64,000 nucleotides of DNA from an uncultured bacterium (GCA_938005705.1 CALLML010000029.1:5705-69704), one strand, 5' to 3'; shown: positions 5,978-36,062, counted from the first letter of the stretch. Numbers and translations: made by a program. Notes: generated by a model from the sequence alone, not told the origin.

Positions 5978-8965
5978 TCAGCGGCGAATCCGACGCCGCA
6001 GCGCCGCCAGCGCCAGTCCGCCGAGCAGCAAGCCTGCGGTTCCCGGCTCCGGAATCACCGTGAACAGCAGATTGTTGCTGTCCATCGAGAAGGAACCGGA
6101 CAACCCGCTGGCAAGATTCTCATACGTGAAGTCGCTCGCGTCCGAGGCGAATGTCGTCGAGCCGAACTGAACCAGCGTGTAGGTCTCGTTCAGTTTTCCA
6201 CCGCCCATAAAGTTGAACTTGAAGTAGCTGCCCGTCCCCTTCAGGAACTCGGACGTGCCCAGGTTCAACCGGTCGGACGTGTTGTCCGTCGTGCTCAGCT
6301 CGAACAACATCTGGGCCGTGTCCGTCGTCTCGCCGTTCCACATGAAATACCCGTTGCCGTTGTTCTGCGTCGAGAGCGTGCCGATGCTCAGACCGGGGGC
6401 CAGACGCCCTCCCGCATTCAACTGAATGGAAGCCGTAGTGCCGTTGCCGCCCAGCCACGCGCCGTCCCGCACCTCGGTCAGCATCGAATTGGCGATCGAA
6501 CCTGTGACGATCAGACCGCCCTCGGACACAATGGTCGGGCCGTTGTAGAGGTTGGTTCCGCTCAACTGGAGCACGCCGGCCCCCATCTTCTGAAAACCAC
6601 CCATTCCGGTGGCCGTCGAGTTATGGAGCACGGACATGACCATAGCAATTTCCGCATCCACCGCCGCCGCGCCGTCGAAAACACGAATCGTAGCGACATT
6701 GGGCGATCCAGATGCTGAGGCCAGGTTAATGATGCTCGAATTGGTGGAATTGACGGTGATTTTCCCATCGGCATCCGCCGCGCTCAGCAGGAATTCGCCG
6801 TTGCGAAGTCCGCTCAGATCCAGAGTGCTGTTGATCGTCACCGTTCGATCCGCGTTATACGCCGCGAAACCGAAGCTGCCCACCACTTGAAACCGCCCCA
6901 CAGCGCCCGTCGCAATCGTGAAGGTCAAATCGCTGCCAGCAAGGCCTAATTGACCGCCCGCGAACTTCAACGTGCTGGAACCCAGGGCGTTCATGGTGCT
7001 CACCGCCAGAACACCGTCGGCGATGGTCGTTTCACCATAGCGCCCGGTGAAGTTATTGTTGCCGGTGAGGAACAGCGTGCCGGGACCCGCTTTGGTGAGG
7101 TGGGTCGTTGTCCCGGTGCCGTTGCGCAGCGTCGTGGACATGGTAACCGGGTTCGCGGTGTTGTTCTGCACAATGATCAGCTCCTGCGCCGTCTGGTTGC
7201 CGCCGCCGATCAGATTGCCGCCGGTGAATGAATTTACCCCGGCGCCGGTGATCAGGATTCCGCTTGCGCCGATCGTCAGGTTGCCGCCCAGCGTGATCGC
7301 CGAGCTGCCGGTCAACCGCAGGGTGTTGATGGTCTGCGTGCCCGGATTCGAATCCGGATTGCCGGAAAGCGACACGTTGTCCGATGCGGCCCAGGCCGTT
7401 GGGTCGGTCGAGGTCTGGTACGTGGACAGCGCGACGATGTTGCTCCCGCTCAGCGTCGCCCAGTCGGTCTTGTTCGCCGTGGCGAACGCCGTGGCGTTGA
7501 TGGTCAGCACGCCGTTGGTGGTCTCCGTATGCGACGTCGTGACCGTGGCGCCCGACGGATTGGTGATGTTCAGAACATGGCCGGTGTTCGTCGTGTTGAC
7601 CGTGGACGCGCGGGACAGTGCGCCGAGATTCACGGCGACCGTGCCGCCGGCGCCCGGCGCGACTTCGATGGAGGTGTAGCCCTCCCTGAGATTCGTTCCG
7701 TTGAAGGTCTGGGTGTTGGCTGCGCCGTCTTTCCCGCGGACGGCGAGCACGCCGTCGTAGAGGTACAGCGGGCTAACGGAATTCACGATATTGCTCGTTG
7801 GCGCGCCCGCGCCGGCGAAATCGAGCCGCAGCAGACCGGCGCGCAATTCCGTTATTCCCGTGTACGGCTGGGCCGCCGTGACGTTCCATGTCCCCTCGCC
7901 CCGTTTGCGGAGCGCGAAAATATTCGTGCCGTTGTTCGTCACCGCGCCGGCGAAAACGTTCTCGGCGATGCTTGATCCTGCCAGACTGAACACCAAGTTA
8001 TAGTTATTTGTGGAGCTCCCATGCCTGACATCGCCGGACCATGTGAGGGGTCCAACGCCATGCGCCGCTAAAATTGCGGGGCTCACGTTGCCATAAATGA
8101 TATTTCGATCCGTCGAGTGGCCCGCCGCATCGGTGCCCGCATAGAACAGCGTCTGTTCCGCGCTGGTCGAACCGACGGAGATATTCCCCAGCGCCGTGGT
8201 CGCCGCGTTTCCCAAGCCACTGGCGCCGCCGCCTACGGGCGTCACCGTCTCAAAGATCGCCAGGCCGCGAGACATACCGAACGAGCCCCGATAGGTGTTC
8301 TGCGCCTTATACCAAATGAGAGAACCGCTATAATCTTGCGAGACGCTCGTGTTGGCCGTGCCGCTGGGGTTGCCGATCACGCCGCGCACGACGGCCACGG
8401 GCGCCGATCCGCCAGTCGTTGTGACCGCAAAGTTCACAGAACCTCCGCTGGTCCCGCTCAGACCCGGGGTCAGATTGCCGTTAATATTGAACATCACGCC
8501 CAAGGTGTGATTGGCAGACCCGGCCTGGGAACTGAAATACAGGTTGCGGTTGGCCGCCGTCGTATGATTGGCGCCGAAAATGTCGGTGTTGAACGTGGCG
8601 GAGGTGGTCGCGTTGATATCGAAATAGATGGACCGATTGCCAGTCGTCCCGTTACTAAAGAAGTAAAGAGGGCCGCCATTGAACACGAAGGGGCCGGATG
8701 AGGCCCCGATGATCAGACGGGCGAGCGTGCGACCCGAGTCCACATTGACGGTGGTGTTGGATGTGCCGCTGAATGTCGCTATATCGGGAGTCAGCGTCGT
8801 CCCTGCCGACGTGTTGCCCGGGACCTGGTTGCCGACCCAGTTAGCTGCCGTATAGAAGTTGGCGTCCGTGTCGCCGTCCCACGTGTCGTCGACGGCGAAG
8901 GCCGGCGCGGCCGCGAGTGCGGCGATGAGGAGTAGGATATTGAACGAATTACGTTTTGTGATCAT
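5978..8965 (-). CDS. PEP-CTERM sorted surface protein with autotransporter-associated beta-strand repeats
   Basis: C-terminal VIPEPGTAGLLLGGLALAALRRRIRR is a PEP motif followed by a transmembrane segment and a basic tail. Internal repeats such as LTKAGPGTLFLTGNNNFTG and LSGTNLYNGPTIV. True start is MITKRNSFNILLLIAALAAAPAFA (signal peptide), an in-frame ATG with its complement at 8963-8965. The track ORF runs on to 9358. Confidence 0.75.
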   Translation of the reverse strand: MITKRNSFNILLLIAALAAAPAFAVDDTWDGDTDANFYTAANWVGNQVPGNTSAGTTLTPDIATFSGTSNTTVNVDSGRTLARLIIGASSGPFVFNGGPLYFFSNGTTGNRSIYFDINATTSATFNTDIFGANHTTAANRNLYFSSQAGSANHTLGVMFNINGNLTPGLSGTSGGSVNFAVTTTGGSAPVAVVRGVIGNPSGTANTSVSQDYSGSLIWYKAQNTYRGSFGMSRGLAIFETVTPVGGGASGLGNAATTALGNISVGSTSAEQTLFYAGTDAAGHSTDRNIIYGNVSPAILAAHGVGPLTWSGDVRHGSSTNNYNLVFSLAGSSIAENVFAGAVTNNGTNIFALRKRGEGTWNVTAAQPYTGITELRAGLLRLDFAGAGAPTSNIVNSVSPLYLYDGVLAVRGKDGAANTQTFNGTNLREGYTSIEVAPGAGGTVAVNLGALSRASTVNTTNTGHVLNITNPSGATVTTSHTETTNGVLTINATAFATANKTDWATLSGSNIVALSTYQTSTDPTAWAASDNVSLSGNPDSNPGTQTINTLRLTGSSAITLGGNLTIGASGILITGAGVNSFTGGNLIGGGNQTAQELIIVQNNTANPVTMSTTLRNGTGTTTHLTKAGPGTLFLTGNNNFTGRYGETTIADGVLAVSTMNALGSSTLKFAGGQLGLAGSDLTFTIATGAVGRFQVVGSFGFAAYNADRTVTINSTLDLSGLRNGEFLLSAADADGKITVNSTNSSIINLASASGSPNVATIRVFDGAAAVDAEIAMVMSVLHNSTATGMGGFQKMGAGVLQLSGTNLYNGPTIVSEGGLIVTGSIANSMLTEVRDGAWLGGNGTTASIQLNAGGRLAPGLSIGTLSTQNNGNGYFMWNGETTDTAQMLFELSTTDNTSDRLNLGTSEFLKGTGSYFKFNFMGGGKLNETYTLVQFGSTTFASDASDFTYENLASGLSGSFSMDSNNLLFTVIPEPGTAGLLLGGLALAALRRRIRR

Positions 8966-9180
8966 GGCTATTTTCCCTCTTTTTGCGAAGAAACTTGATG
9001 ACCCGCGGCGCATTGCCCAACGCAAATATCGCCGCGAAACATCCTTTCTTTTTTCATAACTGGGGACATCATGCACCATGTTGCTGGCGGCGTCAAATAT
9101 TTTTTTGTCTTTTTTTTGAACGCGCCGGGCTGAACGCATCGCCGCGCGACGGCAGGTCCCGCGGCTCCCTGTTTGCCATA

Positions 9181-10053
9181 TCACTCCCACAGCGGCGCCA
9201 GCGCTTCCTCGAGCAGCTTCGGGGTGGCTGAAAACAGCAACGCGGCGGCAAGGCGGTCTCCGACTTCGGCCATGTCGGTGACATTGGTGAAGGTGAAGGT
9301 GCGATTCAATTCCAGTCGTGTAAAAGGAATCGTGGCGGCGATGGATTCGTCCTTCCATTCCATGGCGCCGATCGTCACCGTCATCCGTTCCACGCGCCAG
9401 GTGCGCGGCGGAGAAAGCGCACGGTCTGGGCGCGCCGCGGACGGGGGCGACGTCTTGTCCGGTCGCGCAGGGGGTTTTCGTCCGGCCTCATCCCGATGAT
9501 CCGCCGCCGTTCCGTGGGGCGGTGTTGGCGTTTGGGGAGACGACGGAGCGGAGGATGGCGACGGCGGCGGATCGGCGCGGCGAGAGGACGGCGATGGAGG
9601 CGACGCGACGGGCGTTTCGGGCAGGCCCGCGACGAGCCGGTCAATGTTGGTCTCGCCGTTGGCGCGCCGGACGATCGAGACCTGCGCGATCTCTATCCGC
9701 AATTCGCGCAGCAGGGTCTCGCGCGGACGGTCCGAGCGCCCCCCATGTTCCGCATAGACTTCCCGCACGACGATGGCCGGCCCTTCAGGGAAACCCGCCG
9801 GATTGGCGACGGCCAGGTTTTCGATGCGCACGCGCGCCGGGAAGAGTCGGGCGCGCACGCGGTCCACCCTCACCCTCCACCCTGCGGTCCGTCGCGCTGA
9901 GAAAGTCAGCGCGCGCGCCAGCAGCACATCGCCGGCGAGCCATCCCAGCAGAGACAAGGTCAAAAGGCCGATCAACCAGCGCGGCCATCGGCGGCGTTTC
10001 GATCGAGCAGCGGGGGGCGGCGATGCATCGCGAGGCCGGCGGTCGGCGTTCAT
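9181..10053 (-). CDS. Hypothetical membrane-anchored protein with Pro/Ser-rich linker
   Basis: N-terminal transmembrane segment WLIGLLTLSLLGWLAG. Low-complexity PPSPSS region. No recognisable catalytic motif. Confidence 0.4.
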   Translation of the reverse strand: MNADRRPRDASPPPAARSKRRRWPRWLIGLLTLSLLGWLAGDVLLARALTFSARRTAGWRVRVDRVRARLFPARVRIENLAVANPAGFPEGPAIVVREVYAEHGGRSDRPRETLLRELRIEIAQVSIVRRANGETNIDRLVAGLPETPVASPPSPSSRRADPPPSPSSAPSSPQTPTPPHGTAADHRDEAGRKPPARPDKTSPPSAARPDRALSPPRTWRVERMTVTIGAMEWKDESIAATIPFTRLELNRTFTFTNVTDMAEVGDRLAAALLFSATPKLLEEALAPLWE

Positions 10054-20520: not shown

Positions 20521-21813
20521 ATGATCGAGCGTTACACCCGGCCCGAAATGGGCGCCGTCTGGTCCGAACAGAACAAGTTTCGAATCTGGCTGCGCATCGA
20601 GATTCTCGCATGCGAAGCGATGTGCCGGATAGGCGAGATTCCCGAAAAGGACCTGGAGATCATCCAGCGCCGCGCCACATTTGATGTGGACCGCATCAAC
20701 GAGATTGAGAAAGAAACCCACCATGACGTGATCGCCTTTCTGACGAATGTCGCCGAGAACGTGGGGCCGTCTTCGCGTTTCATTCACCGTGGATTGACCA
20801 GCTCCGACATTCTCGACACAGCGCTGGCGGTTCAGATGGTGGAGGCTGCCGAGCGCCTCATCGCCGGCGCCCGCGCGGTGCGCCGTGCGGCCGCGCGACA
20901 GGCGCGGCGCCATAAATACACGCCGATGATCGGCCGCACCCACGGTGTCCATGCTGAGCCGATCACGTTCGGGCTGAAAATGGCGCTGATGTATGAGGAA
21001 TTCGGCCGCGCCGTGGATCGTCTGGAACGGGCACGGGAGATCGTGCGGGTCGGCAAGCTATCCGGAGCGGTCGGTACGCACGCGCATCTCGATCCGCGGG
21101 TGGAGCGTTATGTCTGCTCGAAACTGGGATTGCGCCCCGCGACTGTTTCCACGCAAATTCTTCAGCGAGACCGCCACGCGGAATATGTGGCAGCTCTCGC
21201 TCTCGTCGGCGCCTCGGTGGAACGTTGGGCCCAGGAATTTCGCCATCTGCAGCGCACGGAGGTTCGGGAAGTCGAGGAGCACTTCGAACGTGGCCAGAAG
21301 GGATCGTCCGCGATGCCGCACAAGCGCAACCCGATCATCGGCGAACGACTCTGCGGCATGGCTCGGCTGCTGCGCGGCTACGCCGTAACGGCCATGGAGA
21401 ACGTGGCGCTGTGGCACGAGCGGGACATTTCCCACTCCTCCGCGGAGCGCGTCTTGCTGCCCGACGCCACCATCGCCCTGGATTACATGCTCGCCAAACT
21501 TGAGACGCTCGTTCGGACGCTGAGCGTGAACCCTCAACGGATGCAGGCGAATCTCGATCTCACCCGCGGCCTTATTCATTCGCAAGAGGTGCTTCTGCGT
21601 CTGACGGAGAAAGGATTCACGCGCGAGGACGCCTACCGAATCGTGCAGCGCCACGCGATGCGCGCCTGGGAGAGCGGAGAGGACTTCCGCGCGCTGCTGG
21701 CCGCCGATCCGGAGATTCGGGCGCGTCTTGAAGAAAAGGATCTAGACGACGCGTTTGACCTGCAGCGGCATTTTCGCGATATTGATCGCACATTCAGAGA
21801 GGTCGGTTTGTGA
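20521..21813 (+). CDS. purB: Adenylosuccinate lyase
   Basis: [16 protein letters not shown] start and fumarate-lyase signature region [11 protein letters not shown]. 430 aa. Confidence 0.9.
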
Positions 21814-22292
21814 GGATTCTGCAAACGCTGATCATACTGGCTGCGCTGGCGTTTCTCGGTTATGCCGTCTGGCAAAACATCTCCGGTGGCCAAACCGTAG
21901 GCCCTGCGCACGCCGGCGGCGGCGAGACGACCGCCCCCCCCGGCCCTTCCTCGGGCGGTGGAGTCCCAACGTCCCCCCAGCCGGGCCTTTCGCAACAACC
22001 GGGCGTATGCGCCCGATGTGGCGGGACCGGTTTTGTAACCTGCGCGGCGTGCGAAGGCAAAGGAACGGTTACCCGCGTGGAGTTGGTCAAATGCGATCAA
22101 TGCAACGGCACCGGTCGTTACAAAGCGCGGGTCGGTGCGGGCAATGTTCCGTGCCCTTTCTGCAAAGGGACGGGACACATAGAGAAAACCGTCACAGCGC
22201 AGTGTTCCATCTGTGGCGGCACGGGAAAAGTGCCTTGTCCGGTCTGCAGAGCCCCCAAAAGCGTTGAGCGCCGACGAAGAAGGACCCAATAA
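21810..22292 (+). CDS. Membrane-anchored DnaJ-type zinc-finger (CxxCxGxG repeat) protein
   Basis: N-terminal transmembrane segment ILQTLIILAALAFLGYAVW. Four to five CxxC.G.G repeats (CARCGGTG, CAACEGKG, CDQCNGTG, CPFCKGTG, CSICGGTG). Start overlaps the purB stop codon. Confidence 0.55.
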   Translation: MRILQTLIILAALAFLGYAVWQNISGGQTVGPAHAGGGETTAPPGPSSGGGVPTSPQPGLSQQPGVCARCGGTGFVTCAACEGKGTVTRVELVKCDQCNGTGRYKARVGAGNVPCPFCKGTGHIEKTVTAQCSICGGTGKVPCPVCRAPKSVERRRRRTQ

Positions 22293-22315
22293 TATGAGGG
22301 GAGAGGCATTTCATC

Positions 22316-23770
22316 GTGAACCCGCATAAAATGATTCCTATGTTTCCAGCCGATTTCGCTTGGGGCGCGGCCACCGCCGCTTATCAGATTGAAGGCGCCT
22401 GGGCGGAGGACGGAAAAGGACCGTCCGTCTGGGATTTGATGAGTCACCAGCCAGGTCGCATCTGGAGCGGACACAACGGCGACATCGCCTGCGACCATTA
22501 TCATCGCTGGCGCGAGGATGTCGCGCTAATGAAGGAACTCGGTTTGAAGGTGTATCGCTTCTCGGTGTCCTGGCCGCGCGTGCTGCCCGAGGGCGTCGGC
22601 CGGAAAAACGAGGCGGGGCTGGCGTTTTACAGTCGTCTGGTGGACGCCTTGCTGGAGGCCGGCATCGAGCCTTGGGTTACCCTGTTTCACTGGGATTTTC
22701 CGCTGGCGCTGTATCGCCGCGGCGGATGGCTCAACCGCGAAAGCGCGGAATGGTTTGCCGAATACACGGGCGTCGTCGCGGATGCGCTTTCCGACCGGGT
22801 GACGCATTGGATGACGCTGAATGAACCCCAGGTTTTTCTCGGCCACGGCCACCAGCTCGGCGTGCATGCACCGGGGCTTCGCCTGGGTTTCGACGATCTT
22901 CTGCTGGCGACTCACCACGTATTGCTGGCGCACGGGCGGGCCGTACGGTCGCTACGCGAGCGCGCGCGCAAGAGACCGTTCATCGGGTGGGCGCCGGCAG
23001 GAAACATCGCGACGCCGGCCGATCCCGACAACCCGCGCGATTGGGAGGCCGCGCGCATGGCCATGTTCGATTGGTTTGCCGATCCGCCGACCCGCACGCC
23101 CTCGGAATCGCACAGTCTCTGGAACAACAGCTACTTCAACGATCCGGTGATCTTTGGTCATTATCCGGATGCGGCATTGAAAAAATGGCACGCCTGGCTG
23201 CCGGAGGTGCAATCCGGCGATATGGAGACCATCCACGCGCCGATCGATTTCTTCGGCGTCAATATCTACAGCAGCAGCACCCAGCGTCTGGACGAGAACG
23301 GTCGTCCCGCCGCGGTTCCCGCGCCGCAGGGCTATCCCCAAACTTTCTTCCACTGGGCGGTGACGCCAGAGAGTCTTTATTACGGCCCGCGTTTTCTGGC
23401 GGAACGTTACCGGCTTCCGATCTACATCACCGAAAACGGCCTCTCCTCCATGGACTGGATCGCGCGGGATGGCGGCGTGCACGACCCGGGGCGGATGGAT
23501 TTCATGGCACGCTATCTGTCCGAACTCGCGCGCGCCGTGGCCGATGGCGTGGACGTGCGCGGATATTTTCACTGGTCGCTACTCGACAACTTCGAGTGGG
23601 CCGAAGGCTTTAAACAGCGATTCGGACTCGTGTTTGTGGATTATATCACGCAGAAACGCGTGCCGAAAGATTCGTTCCACTGGTATGCGGAAGTCATCCG
23701 CACCCGCGGCGCTACGCTTTCGATCGGCCATGGCGCGGGAGCCTTGGCCGCGCCGCCCGGCCCCCTATGA
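22316..23770 (+). CDS. bglA: GH1 beta-glucosidase
   Basis: FAWGAATAAYQIEGA N-terminal signature. LNEP acid/base region. ITENG nucleophile motif. Confidence 0.85.
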   Translation: MNPHKMIPMFPADFAWGAATAAYQIEGAWAEDGKGPSVWDLMSHQPGRIWSGHNGDIACDHYHRWREDVALMKELGLKVYRFSVSWPRVLPEGVGRKNEAGLAFYSRLVDALLEAGIEPWVTLFHWDFPLALYRRGGWLNRESAEWFAEYTGVVADALSDRVTHWMTLNEPQVFLGHGHQLGVHAPGLRLGFDDLLLATHHVLLAHGRAVRSLRERARKRPFIGWAPAGNIATPADPDNPRDWEAARMAMFDWFADPPTRTPSESHSLWNNSYFNDPVIFGHYPDAALKKWHAWLPEVQSGDMETIHAPIDFFGVNIYSSSTQRLDENGRPAAVPAPQGYPQTFFHWAVTPESLYYGPRFLAERYRLPIYITENGLSSMDWIARDGGVHDPGRMDFMARYLSELARAVADGVDVRGYFHWSLLDNFEWAEGFKQRFGLVFVDYITQKRVPKDSFHWYAEVIRTRGATLSIGHGAGALAAPPGPL

Positions 23771-23777
23771 CCGTCCG

Positions 23778-24419
23778 ATGAACCGGCGGCTCTGGATTTG
23801 GCGCCATTTTCGCTTCTGGCTGCCCGAAGACTGGGAGATGCTGCAATTCACGCGCCATTCAGCCGTGGGCCGCTGCGCTTTCGCCGACCGCTACGCCTTT
23901 CGACTCGAGATCAATTGGCGCGCGGTCGCCGGCCCACCCGATTTTGAATTGATGCTGCGGAACTATGTCGCTCGATTGCGCGAAGAAGGCCACGAGCGAC
24001 TCCGGCCGATCCGCCGCGCGGGATGGCGGGGCGTGGCCAGCCAAAAAAACGACCTGGCATGTTCCCGATTCGGCGCGTATTTCGATGCGGAATCTTGCCT
24101 GGTTGAAATGGTTTTTCTCTGGCCCGGCATACCGACCGCGCCGGAACTAGAAAAGGAAATTCTGGAATCGGTTGCTGAATCGCCGCCGGACGCCGCCGCT
24201 GGCTGGCCTTTGGCTTGGACCTGCGCGTCCACGATGATCTTCGACCAACGCGATGCCAGGTGGATCCCGGCGCGGTGGACTGGCATTTCGCGGACGCGCG
24301 AGGCCGGCGGTGGACGCGTTTCCGGCGCATCGGGTTGCGACCGCTCTGGATGCGACAAACGGTGGACGAATGGATGCGCGCTGGTGCACCGCCTTTACGC
24401 GCCGCCCGGGCGGAGATGA
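23778..24419 (+). CDS. Hypothetical Trp/Arg-rich protein (function unknown)
   Basis: ATG at 23778, 8 nt after the bglA stop. No recognisable motif. Its 3' portion overlaps an alternative-frame ORF (24215..24643), so the exact extent is uncertain. Confidence 0.3.
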   Translation: MNRRLWIWRHFRFWLPEDWEMLQFTRHSAVGRCAFADRYAFRLEINWRAVAGPPDFELMLRNYVARLREEGHERLRPIRRAGWRGVASQKNDLACSRFGAYFDAESCLVEMVFLWPGIPTAPELEKEILESVAESPPDAAAGWPLAWTCASTMIFDQRDARWIPARWTGISRTREAGGGRVSGASGCDRSGCDKRWTNGCALVHRLYAPPGRR

Positions 24420-24643
24420 TCGAACGCGACGGACATGTGATTCGACGCTGGGGCGGACGTCTCAGCAGCGGATGGCTTCAGCGGCTCATACGCGGCCCGT
24501 ACGACTATCAGGCGGAAGCGTGGATTTGCCCCGCTGACGATCGACTCTATGTGAGAGAAATTCGCGGGCCGGCATCTTTTGTACAGGACGAATCGCGCGG
24601 CGGCGGGCTGCGTTGCGCCGTTTGCGAAGGGGCTTGCTCGTGA
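24215..24643 (+). CDS. Hypothetical protein (alternative frame, possibly the C-terminal part of a frameshifted gene together with 23778..24419)
   Basis: Ends ...RCAVCEGACS. Overlaps the preceding ORF in a different frame. Could be a genuine separate gene, or the result of a frameshift or sequencing error. Confidence 0.25.
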   Translation: MDLRVHDDLRPTRCQVDPGAVDWHFADARGRRWTRFRRIGLRPLWMRQTVDEWMRAGAPPLRAARAEMIERDGHVIRRWGGRLSSGWLQRLIRGPYDYQAEAWICPADDRLYVREIRGPASFVQDESRGGGLRCAVCEGACS

Positions 24644-24690
24644 GTTCCGCTCGTCGCCCCTTTTCGCCGCCGCGCGCAGATTGGCGCTTG

Positions 24691-25062
24691 ATGCTTGCGG
24701 CGCGACCCGTCCGGAACCTGGCCGCGGAAACGGAACCGGCGAACGACAATGGATTGTGGATCATCATTCGCAAGGCGCCGGCCCCGTGGCGAAAGGCCCC
24801 CTGGAAATGGATCATGCCCGGTCGAGATCATCGGCGAATCGCACTGGATCGTCTCGGACACGAAATGTGGAATCTTTGCGACGGCCAGCGCTCGGTGGAG
24901 GACATCATCGACGAGATGAGCCGGCGCCATCGGCTGTCCTTTCACGAGGCGCGTGTGGCTGTGACCGGGCTTCTTCGGGAATTGATTCGGCGCGGCGCGC
25001 TCGCCATTGCGCTGCCGCCTGACTCCACACCGCCGACGGCTCAAGTCGCCAAGAACCAGTAG
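24691..25062 (+). CDS. PqqD-family protein (RiPP recognition element like peptide chaperone)
   Basis: LGHEMWNLCDGQRSVEDIIDEMSRRHRLSFHEARVAVTGLLRELIRRGAL fits the PqqD pattern (LNETAAxIxELxDGxRxVxxIxxxLxxxF....VxxFLxxLxxxGxI). ATG at 24691. The track ORF begins at 24613. Confidence 0.55.
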   Translation: MLAARPVRNLAAETEPANDNGLWIIIRKAPAPWRKAPWKWIMPGRDHRRIALDRLGHEMWNLCDGQRSVEDIIDEMSRRHRLSFHEARVAVTGLLRELIRRGALAIALPPDSTPPTAQVAKNQ

Positions 25063-25409
25063 AGCATCCAGAGCAGAAAACCGGCGGTAAGCAGAATCAC
25101 GAAAATTTTGTTGCGCCGAATGCGCCGCTCCTCTCTCACGGAAAGCCCCGGCGGAAAACTCGCGCTCGCAAAATACCGGAGGAAACGACGGCGGTCACTG
25201 GGCGGACCAACGGAAGGCCGGCGCTGCGGGGATGGCGTCCCTCCCGCGGCAGGGCGTTTCAGCATGGGCGCCGGCGTCGGTGCCGGCAAAATGGCCGGGG
25301 AGCGATCCCCGGAACGCGACAGCATCTTCAGCGACCGCCTCACTTCACGCAGGCGGCGCTCTACGTCGTCCAGTCGCTCGTCAATCGGATGGGAATGGCG
25401 GCGCGTCAT
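25041..25409 (-). CDS. Small tail-anchored membrane protein (hypothetical)
   Basis: C-terminal transmembrane segment IFVILLTAGFLLWMLYWFLAT. Arg- and Pro-rich N terminus. Confidence 0.4.
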   Translation of the reverse strand: MTRRHSHPIDERLDDVERRLREVRRSLKMLSRSGDRSPAILPAPTPAPMLKRPAAGGTPSPQRRPSVGPPSDRRRFLRYFASASFPPGLSVREERRIRRNKIFVILLTAGFLLWMLYWFLAT

Positions 25410-26954: not shown

Positions 26955-27545
26955 CATGAAGAGGAGAGCCGATGGCGCGGCGGGGAATGAGCGGCGGATA
27001 AAGGCGTGGGCAAAGGGATGCGAACATCATGTACCCCCGACGCCCCAGCACCATTTGTCGGTTTTTCGCATGGTTCCAAAAAAAACACGGGGGGTTCGTC
27101 CTTGGGGTTTCAAGCGGGTATAGGTTGCGGTGTACAAGCCCCGCATGAACTTCGAATCTCCTTCCTCGCTCTTCGGTCTGGGGCATGATGAACGCCGGGG
27201 CGGAGGGCAGGGCCAGGCCGTGGGGGCCGTCGGCCGGACAAGCAGCCAGTCAGGGTCGGGTGTCGAGGGAATTCGATAAGTCCGGTGGGATGGAGCCGGT
27301 TGCCCGGTGGAATATCCGGGAGGCGCTGTAATGGCATGACCGCCTTTTTCCCTGGCGCATCGCCGGCACAAAACCGGGCGATCTACCCGGGGCACAGATC
27401 GGCTGGTTCGGCTCCTTCGGCGAATGGAATCAACAGCGAAAATACACCGGGTCCTGGGAGGCAAGCCGTTTCCCTCTCGTCTGCCAAAGCCCGCTTTTCA
27501 AGCCAGCTCCTGTAGCGCAACCGGCTCAGGAGAGGAAAGGGCCTC
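26955..27545 (+). repeat. Non-coding structured repeat, copy A of a three-copy family
   Basis: Collinear with 56118..56640 (blocks ggcggataaaggcgt..., gggtatAGGttgcggt, cgctcttcggtctgggg, ggctggttcggcTccTtcggcgaatgga, gcaaccggct) and partly with 31285..31650. No credible ORF. Confidence 0.5.
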
Positions 27546-33715: not shown

Positions 33716-35110
33716 TTACGGACCCTTTTCAGGAATGGTGGACCTCCGAGAGTGGGGAGGATTCGGCTTCGCGGGTTCCACCGCGGAAGGCGTTGTTCGA
33801 TGGCGCGGGAGAGAGAGCGAACCGTCGAAAAACTCGATCACGTGGCCCTTGTCCACCAGCCAGCGCAGGTGGTTCAGCAGAGCGCGCACGTCCGGATCAT
33901 CGGCCGTGCGTTCGGGAAAAAGAGTGCTTACCATTTGTTCGCGCGTGCAGCCGGGGTGGGCAGCCAGATGGTTCAGTGCGGCACGGATGGGCGGGATGGC
34001 GCGGTCAGAGTCCAGGGGTGAAGGCGCCACGGCGGTGACGAACGTATGAATCTCGTCCGCCTTGAACAAGTGAAATCCCATATGGCGCAGCGCCGGACGC
34101 AAGGCAAACATGAGCGTTGCGGGGAATCGGTTTTCACGCGCCCACGCTTCGCGGACCTTTTCCTGAAGCGCAGCGTCTTCCAGCTCCAGTGCGAGCGAGG
34201 CGGGTAGGATGGCCCGCGAGACATGATGCACAACCTCGGACCCTGCTTTATCCAAAATCCAGGCGCGAACATCGGTCCACGTCCGCGGCGGCGCTTCGGG
34301 CGTTTCCCGGTTGTAGTACAGCGTCGCCCGGGCGGCCTCACGTTTCCATTGCTCGATCAGTTCGGGATCCCGCACGGTTTCCAACCGCGCCCGATATTCT
34401 TCCATCGACATCTCCGGGGCCTCGGCATCTCGCGCCCGCCGGAGGTTTTCCGCGAACAAATGGTGATTGGGCGGCCCAATCAGACGCCCGCTGGTCCGTG
34501 AGCGCACGATGCACGGGAATTGACCCGAAGGCGGCTGGAGCTCTGTCTCGCGCGCTTCGAACCAGCGATCGGCATGATGGGCAACGACGTGATCCAGCGC
34601 CGCTTCACGGTCCAGAAAAACAGCCTGACAAATCTGGCACTGATATAGGGAAGGCGCGTCGGGGACGGACCGTCGGCTCTCTATTTTTACCTGGCAAAAG
34701 TCCGGACGCTTCAAAAACAAATGCGCCACTTCAGACAGCGGGTACGCACGCCGCGTCGCATGCATGCGGTGGACGACCACCCCGAGCTGTCTGCGCTCGG
34801 GGATAAAATGGATATCAACGGCCGCCTCCCGGCGCTCGGACACCGTCGACGGCGACGGACGTTCCGCCGCTTGCGCCTCTCGACGGACCGCGGGCCGGCG
34901 ATCGGAGCGGGGACGTCGTCGGGGTTCGTAATCGCGGCCCGGTCGCAACTCGGGCTCGTCTTTTTCCTGTGCGAAGCGGCTTTCCGCGTAGCGGGTTTCC
35001 GTCGCGGGTCGGCGCGCCCAGGTCGGAATAAAATCGAGGTCGAGCATCGCCTCCGCGACCGGGGGCTCTGGGTTCATATCCGTTTCGCTTTCTAGTTCCA
35101 TGGGAATCAT
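33716..35110 (-). CDS. Hypothetical protein with a single C2H2-like zinc-finger motif. Start uncertain.
   Basis: CQICQAVFLDREAALDHVVAHH motif. The track ORF runs to 35596, but the N-terminal 160 residues (FIFAFLYLHVPRFIFFVDFP...) look non-coding. Candidate starts are MVRF, MIPMELE or MELE near 35100-35130. Confidence 0.4.
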   Translation of the reverse strand: MIPMELESETDMNPEPPVAEAMLDLDFIPTWARRPATETRYAESRFAQEKDEPELRPGRDYEPRRRPRSDRRPAVRREAQAAERPSPSTVSERREAAVDIHFIPERRQLGVVVHRMHATRRAYPLSEVAHLFLKRPDFCQVKIESRRSVPDAPSLYQCQICQAVFLDREAALDHVVAHHADRWFEARETELQPPSGQFPCIVRSRTSGRLIGPPNHHLFAENLRRARDAEAPEMSMEEYRARLETVRDPELIEQWKREAARATLYYNRETPEAPPRTWTDVRAWILDKAGSEVVHHVSRAILPASLALELEDAALQEKVREAWARENRFPATLMFALRPALRHMGFHLFKADEIHTFVTAVAPSPLDSDRAIPPIRAALNHLAAHPGCTREQMVSTLFPERTADDPDVRALLNHLRWLVDKGHVIEFFDGSLSLPRHRTTPSAVEPAKPNPPHSRRSTIPEKGP

Positions 35111-35459
35111 ACGCGCGAAGCGCACCATTCGAGCAACACAACACACAAACGCATTTTTCCCCGCGAGTAAAGCGGAAAGAGCAGGCGGCGTCTCCGGGAA
35201 TTCGCCGACCGCCATTCCTCGCATCACGGAGTTTTTGAGCCTCTCCAATACCATCCCACCCGCTAAACCTTCTGTCACGTCATAGAAATCAAACGGGTAA
35301 ATTCGGGCTGTCCCCAGCTCGACGGACAACCGTTGACCCGGGCCGGCGGGGAAGAGGTCCAATATTTCACCTGTGAGACTGTTCCGCGAATGGAATTGCT
35401 CTTCGCGCAGGAGAAGAGGAAAATGTTGCGTGGCGGGGAGGAGCCAGAGCGAATCCAGG

Positions 35460-35477
35460 TTTCCAAGCCTTGGAAAA
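35460..35477. promoter_or_regulatory. 18-bp near-palindrome TTTCCAAGCCTTGGAAAA, copy 2
   Basis: Identical to 27755..27772. 67 bp upstream of the NUDIX gene ATG. Confidence 0.3.
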
Positions 35478-35543
35478 AGGGACCGGACCGGGAAGTCCAC
35501 AAAAAAAATAAAACGGGGGACGTGGAGATAGAGGAAAGCAAAG

Positions 35544-36062
35544 ATGAAATGGGATGAGGTGAACTGGGATGCGTGGACGCCATGCTGGCGCGCCACGCTG
35601 CTGTTTGTCGTGCGCGACGACCAAATCCTCCTGATTCACAAGAAACGAGGCCTTGGGGCCGGTAAGATCAATGCGCCGGGTGGCCGCATCGAGCCGGGCG
35701 AAACGCTGCTGGAGGCCGCCATACGCGAAGTTCGTGAGGAGCTGCGGATCACGCCGCGCACCCCTGAAGAGCGGGGCCACCTGCGCTTTCAGTTCACGGA
35801 CGGTCTTTCCATCGAAGTGCATGTGTTTCGGTCCGATAGTTGCGACGGCGAGCCCGCGGAAACGGACGAGGCCGCGCCGCTATGGGTTCCCACGGATGCC
35901 GTTCCCTACGATCGAATGTGGGAGGATGATCGCGTCTGGCTGCCGCATTTTCTGGCGGGTAAATTCTTTCGCGGGCGTTTTCTTTTCGACGGCGACTGCA
36001 TGAAGACACACGCGTTGACGGTGTTCGACAGTTTCGATGCGTGGCGCGCGTCCGGCGAATGA
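35544..36062 (+). CDS. NUDIX hydrolase (MutT-like)
   Basis: Nudix box GGRIEPGETLLEAAIREVREELRI. GAGGAAAG ribosome-binding site upstream. Confidence 0.7.
   Translation: MKWDEVNWDAWTPCWRATLLFVVRDDQILLIHKKRGLGAGKINAPGGRIEPGETLLEAAIREVREELRITPRTPEERGHLRFQFTDGLSIEVHVFRSDSCDGEPAETDEAAPLWVPTDAVPYDRMWEDDRVWLPHFLAGKFFRGRFLFDGDCMKTHALTVFDSFDAWRASGE

Follow-up and report, generated by a model that had tools for sequence, protein, structure and literature searches.

The stretch of DNA analysed here, hereafter the window, comprises 64,000 nucleotides from an uncultured bacterium (GCA_938005705.1, CALLML010000029.1:5705-69704), and its subject is a pair of adjacent genes at 23778-25062: a gene that we call X, followed by a gene of the PqqD family, whose product has the fold of a recognition element (RRE) for RiPPs (peptides made on the ribosome and modified after translation). 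RRE/PqqD domains are used to flag RiPP natural-product clusters whatever their class, and the RRE fold binds a short stretch of peptide as an additional beta-strand. The conserved context of this pair is a type VII (MacB/FtsX-type) ATP-binding cassette (ABC) cluster and not bglA, the beta-glucosidase gene of glycoside hydrolase family 1 (GH1) that precedes it in the window. The features of the locus are as follows.

22316-23770, plus strand: GH1 beta-glucosidase (Pfam Glyco_hydro_1, E 3.7e-149), the upstream neighbour
23778-24643, plus strand: gene X (~290 aa, Mog1/PsbP-like), which in the window falls into frame A (23778-24197) and frame B (24200-24643)
24181-24198, plus strand: frameshift site in X, one CGCCGCCGGA unit (24181-24190) and then a partial unit
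24640-25062, plus strand: PqqD-family RRE protein (PF05402), 140 aa from GTG 24640
24829-24999, plus strand: match to the core PqqD domain (PF05402); in the 149-aa translation that begins at 24613, residues 73-129 align with profile positions 10-66 of 67

Read as it stands, the window gives one open reading frame (ORF) running from ATG 23778 to 24419 and a second frame open from 24215 to 24643, and an earlier note on this DNA had suggested that the two might be one frameshifted gene. They are indeed a single gene of ~290 codons, X, broken by a 10-bp deletion. Joined, frames A and B encode a 287-aa protein, and a protein search with this frameshift-corrected translation, which the earlier note had suggested trying, returned 52 homologues of 270-314 aa that align with it from end to end. 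The best of these, P0001, is 99% identical at 100% query coverage and reads PPDAAGRRRWLAFGL where the window changes frame; it is encoded on two contigs, L001 from an ENA assembly and L002 from a Logan assembly of run ERR9287621, which were assembled independently and represent the same strain as the window. Both have two copies of CGCCGCCGGA and an intact X, whereas the window retains one. L001 shows 0 mismatches to the window over 11,137 aligned bp and differs from it only by the 10-bp gap and, at 27078, by a 1-bp indel; the 10-bp gap is the sole difference from L002 over 8,058 bp. The intact reading also brings back two family-invariant residues, W161 and G165. Because these otherwise near-identical contigs have the two-copy form, and because the invariant residues are restored with it, X can be taken as intact in the population; the window allele, private to this assembly, most probably reflects an error of assembly or else a rare variant produced by slippage. 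Compared with L001, the window carries an additional A at 27078, inside a minus-strand gene (171 aa in L001; a 145-aa ORF, 27027-27464, in the window). This is a second private indel, which suggests that errors of this type are made in the assembly.

The ORF that ends at 25062 is PqqD-like, as had been proposed from its residue pattern: it matches Pfam PF05402 (E 2.9e-9) with 37.6 bits, the curated cut-off being 23.4, a domain present in all 43 of its PqqD homologues, and its AlphaFold2 (AF2) model (pLDDT 86.9) consists of a three-stranded beta-sheet followed by a three-helix winged-helix bundle, which is the RRE layout. Its start had been placed at ATG 24691, but this is most likely an internal codon and GTG 24640 the true start, since the profile built from the 43 homologues matches the window starting at 24640 and the homologues share an N-terminal motif, W-[RK]-x-M-L-A-A-R-P-V-R-N-A-A-A, which in the window lies upstream of 24691; read from GTG 24640, the N-terminus equals that of homologue P0054 in length. 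The GTG overlaps the TGA stop codon of X (24641-24643) as GTGA, and similar start/stop overlaps occur in L003, L004 and L089; the overlap suggests that X and PqqD are probably translationally coupled. None of the NCBIfam equivalog models tried (lasso B1, pyrroloquinoline quinone (PQQ) PqqD, GeoRSP and SynChlorMet) reaches its cut-off on this protein, whose sequence has no N-terminal hydrophobic signal. By structure comparison the lasso B1 proteins are closest, and RRE structures score far above winged-helix regulators. The latter result bears on the proposal of a DNA-binding role, in which the PqqD-like protein would regulate its operon through the winged helix and X would be the sensor partner, and for which the winged helix-turn-helix within the RRE fold might be cited. 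We consider this highly improbable because of the difference in scores, and PF05402 proteins are, moreover, not known as DNA binders.

The earlier description of the upstream ORFs as unrecognisable holds for the merged protein: no Pfam or NCBIfam model matched X, neither alone nor across 51 family members, and a sequence-profile search against the PDB gave nothing with E below 1. An AF2 model built from the 51-sequence alignment (pLDDT 92.6, pTM 0.86) presents X as two beta-rich domains of Mog1/PsbP type, with the same order of strands and helices occurring twice. The two-domain description rests on this repeated order, because the N- and C-terminal halves have no significant sequence similarity to one another (hhalign, E 0.037 locally). 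The fold relatives of the model, with their scores, are cyanobacterial PsbP (13.0), TplEi, an immunity protein of the type VI secretion system (T6SS) (12.9), BT_1490 (12.7), Mog1 (11.3), Tsi3 (10.1), LpqN (10.1), DcrB (10.0) and SciW/Eag (9.8). Foldseek likewise gives domain-level agreement with the Mog1/PsbP fold (TMt 0.5-0.6) and no whole-chain equivalent (TMq at most 0.33). The structural neighbours of X are non-enzymatic, and proteins of Mog1/PsbP-like fold normally have no catalytic role and dock onto other proteins or membrane complexes. The N-terminus of X (MNRRLWIWRHFRF...) enters the first beta-strand directly, with no signal peptide or other hydrophobic signal, and X is thus predicted to be cytoplasmic. 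A role in T6SS immunity, as for Tli4/TplEi and Tsi3, is unlikely because of this predicted location and because no effector-like gene occurs in the flanks of the loci examined.

The alignment of the X family shows three conserved motifs, GRCAFADR, RRW-x-AFG and AEAWICP-x-DGRLY, the first of which contains the nearly invariant Cys49. Three further residues, His239, Cys270 and Cys299, are kept jointly in most of the distinct aligned sequences and lost jointly in about a quarter, and the partnership with PqqD remains in the members that lack them; the pattern suggests a structural metal site in part of the family only. Two types of tail occur in the C-terminal 20 residues of X (L009-L087), L-[SA]-C-C-x5-8 and [SA]-C-P-E-F-[LT]-x-V-P, and the Cys-Cys tail shows no correlation with the presence of PqqD. 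In a library of representatives clustered at 50% identity, 914 sequences belong to the family at E ≤ 1e-3, and 326 do so at E ≤ 1e-30.

When one genome per species was scanned, 79 X loci were obtained, most of them with the label Kiritimatiellia, Lentisphaeria or Victivallales or with a looser label of the Planctomycetes-Verrucomicrobia-Chlamydiae (PVC) group; the only named isolate among them is Oligosphaera ethanolica DSM 24202. Of the 73 loci with room downstream, 66 have a PqqD gene of the same subfamily that starts no more than ~100 nt from where X ends. Seven species-level loci (L042, L046, L051, L058, L067, L071 and L078) have an X with no detectable PqqD downstream, a subgroup that might reveal the role of X by itself. 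The two genes form a single uninterrupted ORF in L025, L045 and L062, and fused X-PqqD proteins are found in the representative library (P0136, 426 aa; P0161, 507 aa). The PqqD protein had been called an orphan, which it is in this lineage only; X is its constant partner.

A comparison of gene neighbourhoods, proposed in the earlier note for the PqqD homologues, showed that both X and a type VII ABC cluster recur with them. Counting was restricted to the 46 loci with at least 9.5 kb of downstream flank, and in 37 of these the pair is followed on the same strand by an FtsX-domain permease of ~490 aa, an ABC ATPase and an FtsX-domain protein of 1,600-1,730 aa. The ATPase is nearest to LolD, DarD, DevA, MacB and FtsE, with all scores below the equivalog cut-offs. 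Wherever the locus extends far enough, an OPT-like protein of ~670 aa comes next (PF03169, E 3e-8 in Oligosphaera). A polytopic membrane protein of 680-930 aa with DUF6785 and DUF6784 is often present too, its gene standing ahead of X or else separating the PqqD gene from that of the permease. With D for DUF6785, P for PqqD, F for the FtsX permease, A for the ATPase, G for the giant FtsX protein and O for the OPT-like protein, the recurrent orders are D-X-P-F-A-G-O, X-P-F-A-G-O and X-P-D-F-A-G; in L008, consecutive genes of the operon overlap by 4 nt. Starting from PqqD homologues, all three contexts examined carry the same downstream cluster genes, with a gene of X length directly upstream of PqqD in two, the contig of the third ending 117 bp before PqqD. 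Ancestrally and in most species, the pair belongs to an operon with the DUF6785/DUF6784, FtsX permease, ATPase, giant FtsX and OPT-like genes.

Some members of this cluster have features of their own. The giant FtsX protein has a Peptidase_M28/nicastrin-like region (L088 5133-8495; L013 13647-18614; L050 13818-18674), which is unusual for an ABC permease. A PDB sequence search with the DUF6785 protein gave no match, and the idea that it is a divergent OPT transporter was not supported (hhalign probability 3%). The other candidates for conserved neighbours, namely a 426-aa protein in L004, 392- and 417-aa proteins in L090 and the downstream minus-strand genes of the window, are lineage-specific. 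The N-terminal cytoplasmic tail of the OPT-like protein is highly conserved, reading DKELEEFRQVMEVPSTFE[DE]GFNW in L026, L044, L068, L069, L073, L077 and L082; this tail (DKELEEFRQVMEVPSTFEDGFNW) is a candidate recognition sequence for the RRE.

Such a tail, together with the tight operon coupling of the pair to three unusually large membrane proteins, would also suit an assembly chaperone, in which X-PqqD binds nascent or unassembled segments of the DUF6785, giant FtsX and OPT-like proteins and keeps them competent for insertion. The DUF1795/Eag chaperones, which share the fold of X, handle the transmembrane helices of T6SS effectors. However, X resembles PsbP and Mog1 at least as closely as it does Eag, and the pair survives in lineages with no cluster gene within 10 kb, so that we regard this explanation as improbable.

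The window itself belongs to such a lineage. In eight of the 46 well-flanked loci, including that of the window, none of the cluster genes is found near the pair, and no DUF6785, FtsX, ATPase, giant FtsX or OPT-like gene occurs within the 64 kb; in this strain the pair has moved from the transporter genes to behind the GH1 gene. One might see here a decaying remnant, whose X was truly inactivated by repeat slippage after leaving the transporter operon and whose PqqD is a functionless orphan, given the frameshift, the slippage-prone CGCCGCCGGA repeat and a window devoid of transporter genes. Yet X is intact in both of the other, independent assemblies of this strain, neither of which shows a single substitution over 8-11 kb, the indel at 27078 points to errors of assembly, and in the relatives with isolated pairs both genes are intact at 55-68% identity. 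We assign decay a slight probability, below that of the chaperone.

The earlier note had considered a role of the pair in peptide modification. The absence of a classical PqqD partner was confirmed: no radical-SAM, lasso B2/C or other RiPP enzyme occurs in the flanking genes of the module or among the ten largest ORFs scanned in the window, and no radical-SAM, YcaO, lasso B2/C or lanthipeptide enzyme lies near the pair in any related locus examined. The flanks were also searched for small precursor-peptide ORFs, as had been recommended, and no conserved candidate emerged: clustering of 1,069 intergenic small ORFs within ±10 kb at ~90 loci gave no conserved precursor, although a remote or very short one might escape such a search, and the small-ORF clusters obtained were artefacts (alternative-frame ORFs of the ATPase gene and truncated N-termini of the OPT-like protein). 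A peptide-modification module linked to the GH1 gene is thus not supported, the fold of X being non-enzymatic, no conserved precursor ORF lying nearby and the conserved context being the ABC cluster.

A cryptic RiPP-like pathway may nonetheless be envisaged, in which PqqD presents a leader to X, a new leader-dependent peptidase or modifying enzyme with a Cys/His site, export of the product falls to the FtsX-type ABC system, and the gene for the precursor lies at some other place. The closest structural relatives of the PqqD protein, the lasso B1 proteins, pass leaders to a Cys protease; X has the near-invariant Cys49 in GRCAFADR and a co-varying His/Cys set; ABC exporters are common in RiPP clusters; and a survey of RREs reports many uncharacterised RRE partners (PMC12710340). 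The lack of any conserved precursor-like ORF in the ±10 kb flanks at more than 80 loci counts against it, as do the block loss of the His/Cys set in about a quarter of the family with PqqD kept, which is more in keeping with a structural metal site than with a catalytic site, and the type VII nature of the transporter, whose huge extra domains are unlike those of RiPP exporters. Like the chaperone, this pathway seems to us improbable.

We propose instead, tentatively and at a little under an even chance, that X-PqqD is a cytoplasmic peptide-binding adaptor of the type VII ABC system. X and PqqD would act as one complex. In the cytoplasm, the RRE would use strand augmentation to catch a peptide, or a tail of peptide-like character on a partner protein, and X would dock the RRE-peptide complex onto the cytoplasmic face of the type VII ABC machine. 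The pair would accordingly be a substrate- or signal-recognition or regulatory adaptor rather than a biosynthetic chaperone. Several points weigh against this proposal. No conserved small ORF was found within ~10 kb of the pair. The pair persists in those eight loci with no transporter gene nearby, so that it may work in trans or on its own. Type VII ABC transporters are understood to handle substrates of the periplasm or the membrane, and a cytoplasmic peptide adaptor is to our knowledge without precedent among them. Lastly, Cys49 together with His239/Cys270/Cys299 could form a catalytic or metal site, in which case X would not be a pure scaffold. A bolder version, which we hold to be unlikely as a whole though less so than any of the rivals above, is that X-PqqD is the first RRE module outside natural-product biosynthesis: a cytoplasmic peptide-sensing or peptide-delivering adaptor, firmly tied and in some cases fused to a PsbP-like scaffold, which controls or feeds a seven-gene envelope machine, not described before, of the Kiritimatiellota and Lentisphaerota. 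This machine combines the type VII ABC system, the M28-like giant permease, the DUF6785 protein and the OPT-like protein.

The link to the GH1 gene, by comparison, is incidental, and GH1 lies outside the conserved module. The beta-glucosidase gene is real, and 7 nt (not 8, as had been reported) separate its end at 23770 from the ATG of X at 23778; however, a GH1 gene adjoins X only in the window, L001 and L002, that is, in one strain. In this genome, co-transcription of GH1 with X-PqqD is plausible, because a sigma-70-like promoter site is predicted upstream of the GH1 gene (22264-22293) and site prediction gave no promoter-like or terminator-like site between GH1 and the genes that follow. 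The genes flanking the module in the window are of housekeeping type (mnmE, purB, a TauE-family gene and an ADP-ribosylglycohydrolase gene). On the minus strand, a 122-aa ORF with a C-terminal hydrophobic anchor (25041-25409) runs towards the PqqD gene and shares 22 bp with the 3' end of the latter; Pfam gives no match for this ORF, and its synteny is limited to close relatives (L009, L010). Between purB and the GH1 gene lies a plus-strand gene (21810-22292) whose 160-aa product combines a hydrophobic segment at the N-terminus with repeated CxxCxGxG motifs of the DnaJ-type zinc finger; its Pfam matches are weak or faint only. Farther away, both on the minus strand, are a gene for a 1,126-aa protein (5978-9358) whose sole Pfam match is one PATR (passenger-associated transport repeat), and a 626-aa ORF with no Pfam match (33716-35596).

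The earlier suspicion that the module was undescribed proved well founded, with no Pfam or NCBIfam family for X and none found in the literature. Neither the X family, nor the X-PqqD pairing, nor the seven-gene cluster is defined as a system in Pfam or NCBIfam; the literature searched is silent on them, and searches for DUF6785, DUF6784, PF20581 and PqqD with FtsX found nothing. A 2025 survey of RREs describes many RREs with uncharacterised partners, in general terms only (PMC12710340). For RiPP specialists it should be surprising that this RRE subfamily has a constant partner of non-enzymatic fold and a conserved MacB/FtsX-type ABC context. If the pair is an adaptor of the ABC machine, the known roles of the RRE fold widen, false positives in RiPP genome mining become a concern, and type VII ABC transporters gain an identified input from the cytoplasm. 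The regulation and substrates of these transporters are, as far as we know, poorly understood, especially in PVC bacteria. The cluster is present in the cultured O. ethanolica DSM 24202 and is therefore open to experiment. As for the window, its "two ORFs" reflect an assembly-level indel, and its instance of the pair is a relocated copy.

Among known systems, the split-B lasso B1 proteins (TfuB1, TbiB1) resemble the present case in being small stand-alone PqqD-family proteins encoded beside a partner with overlapping start and stop codons. They differ from it in that no locus here has a B2 transglutaminase-like protease, a C (Asn-synthetase-like) cyclase or a precursor; the lasso model NF033536 gives 16 bits on this PqqD against a cut-off of 80; the protein carries a further conserved motif at its N-terminus, and ~20 aa are inserted between strands; and its partner has a PsbP-like fold. 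The PqqD of PQQ biosynthesis and the PqqD-family chaperones of the GeoRSP and SynChlorMet systems also belong to PF05402, and their NCBIfam models match only weakly (TIGR03859, 20.7 against 46; TIGR04302, 25 against 100), with no radical-SAM partner and no pqqA/B/C/E genes present here. From the Mog1/PsbP-like proteins (PsbP, Mog1, TplEi/Tli4, Tsi3, DcrB, LpqN, SciW/Eag and BT_1490), X is set apart by lying outside their sequence families (the PsbP, DUF1795, DcrB and Tli4_C profiles gave no Pfam match in any of the 51 X members), by its predicted cytoplasmic location with no signal peptide, where most of those proteins are periplasmic or lumenal, by a two-domain chain that has no whole-chain match, and by its obligate pairing or fusion with an RRE. 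As in the type VII ABC systems MacB, LolCDE, FtsEX and DevCA, an FtsX-domain permease and a LolD/MacB/DevA/FtsE-like ATPase stand together, here beside the pair in related loci; we know of no type VII system with a cytoplasmic RRE accessory. The parts are known folds and their combination is undescribed: to the familiar permease and ATPase this cluster adds a ~1,650-aa FtsX protein with its M28/nicastrin-like region, a DUF6785/6784 protein and an OPT-like protein.
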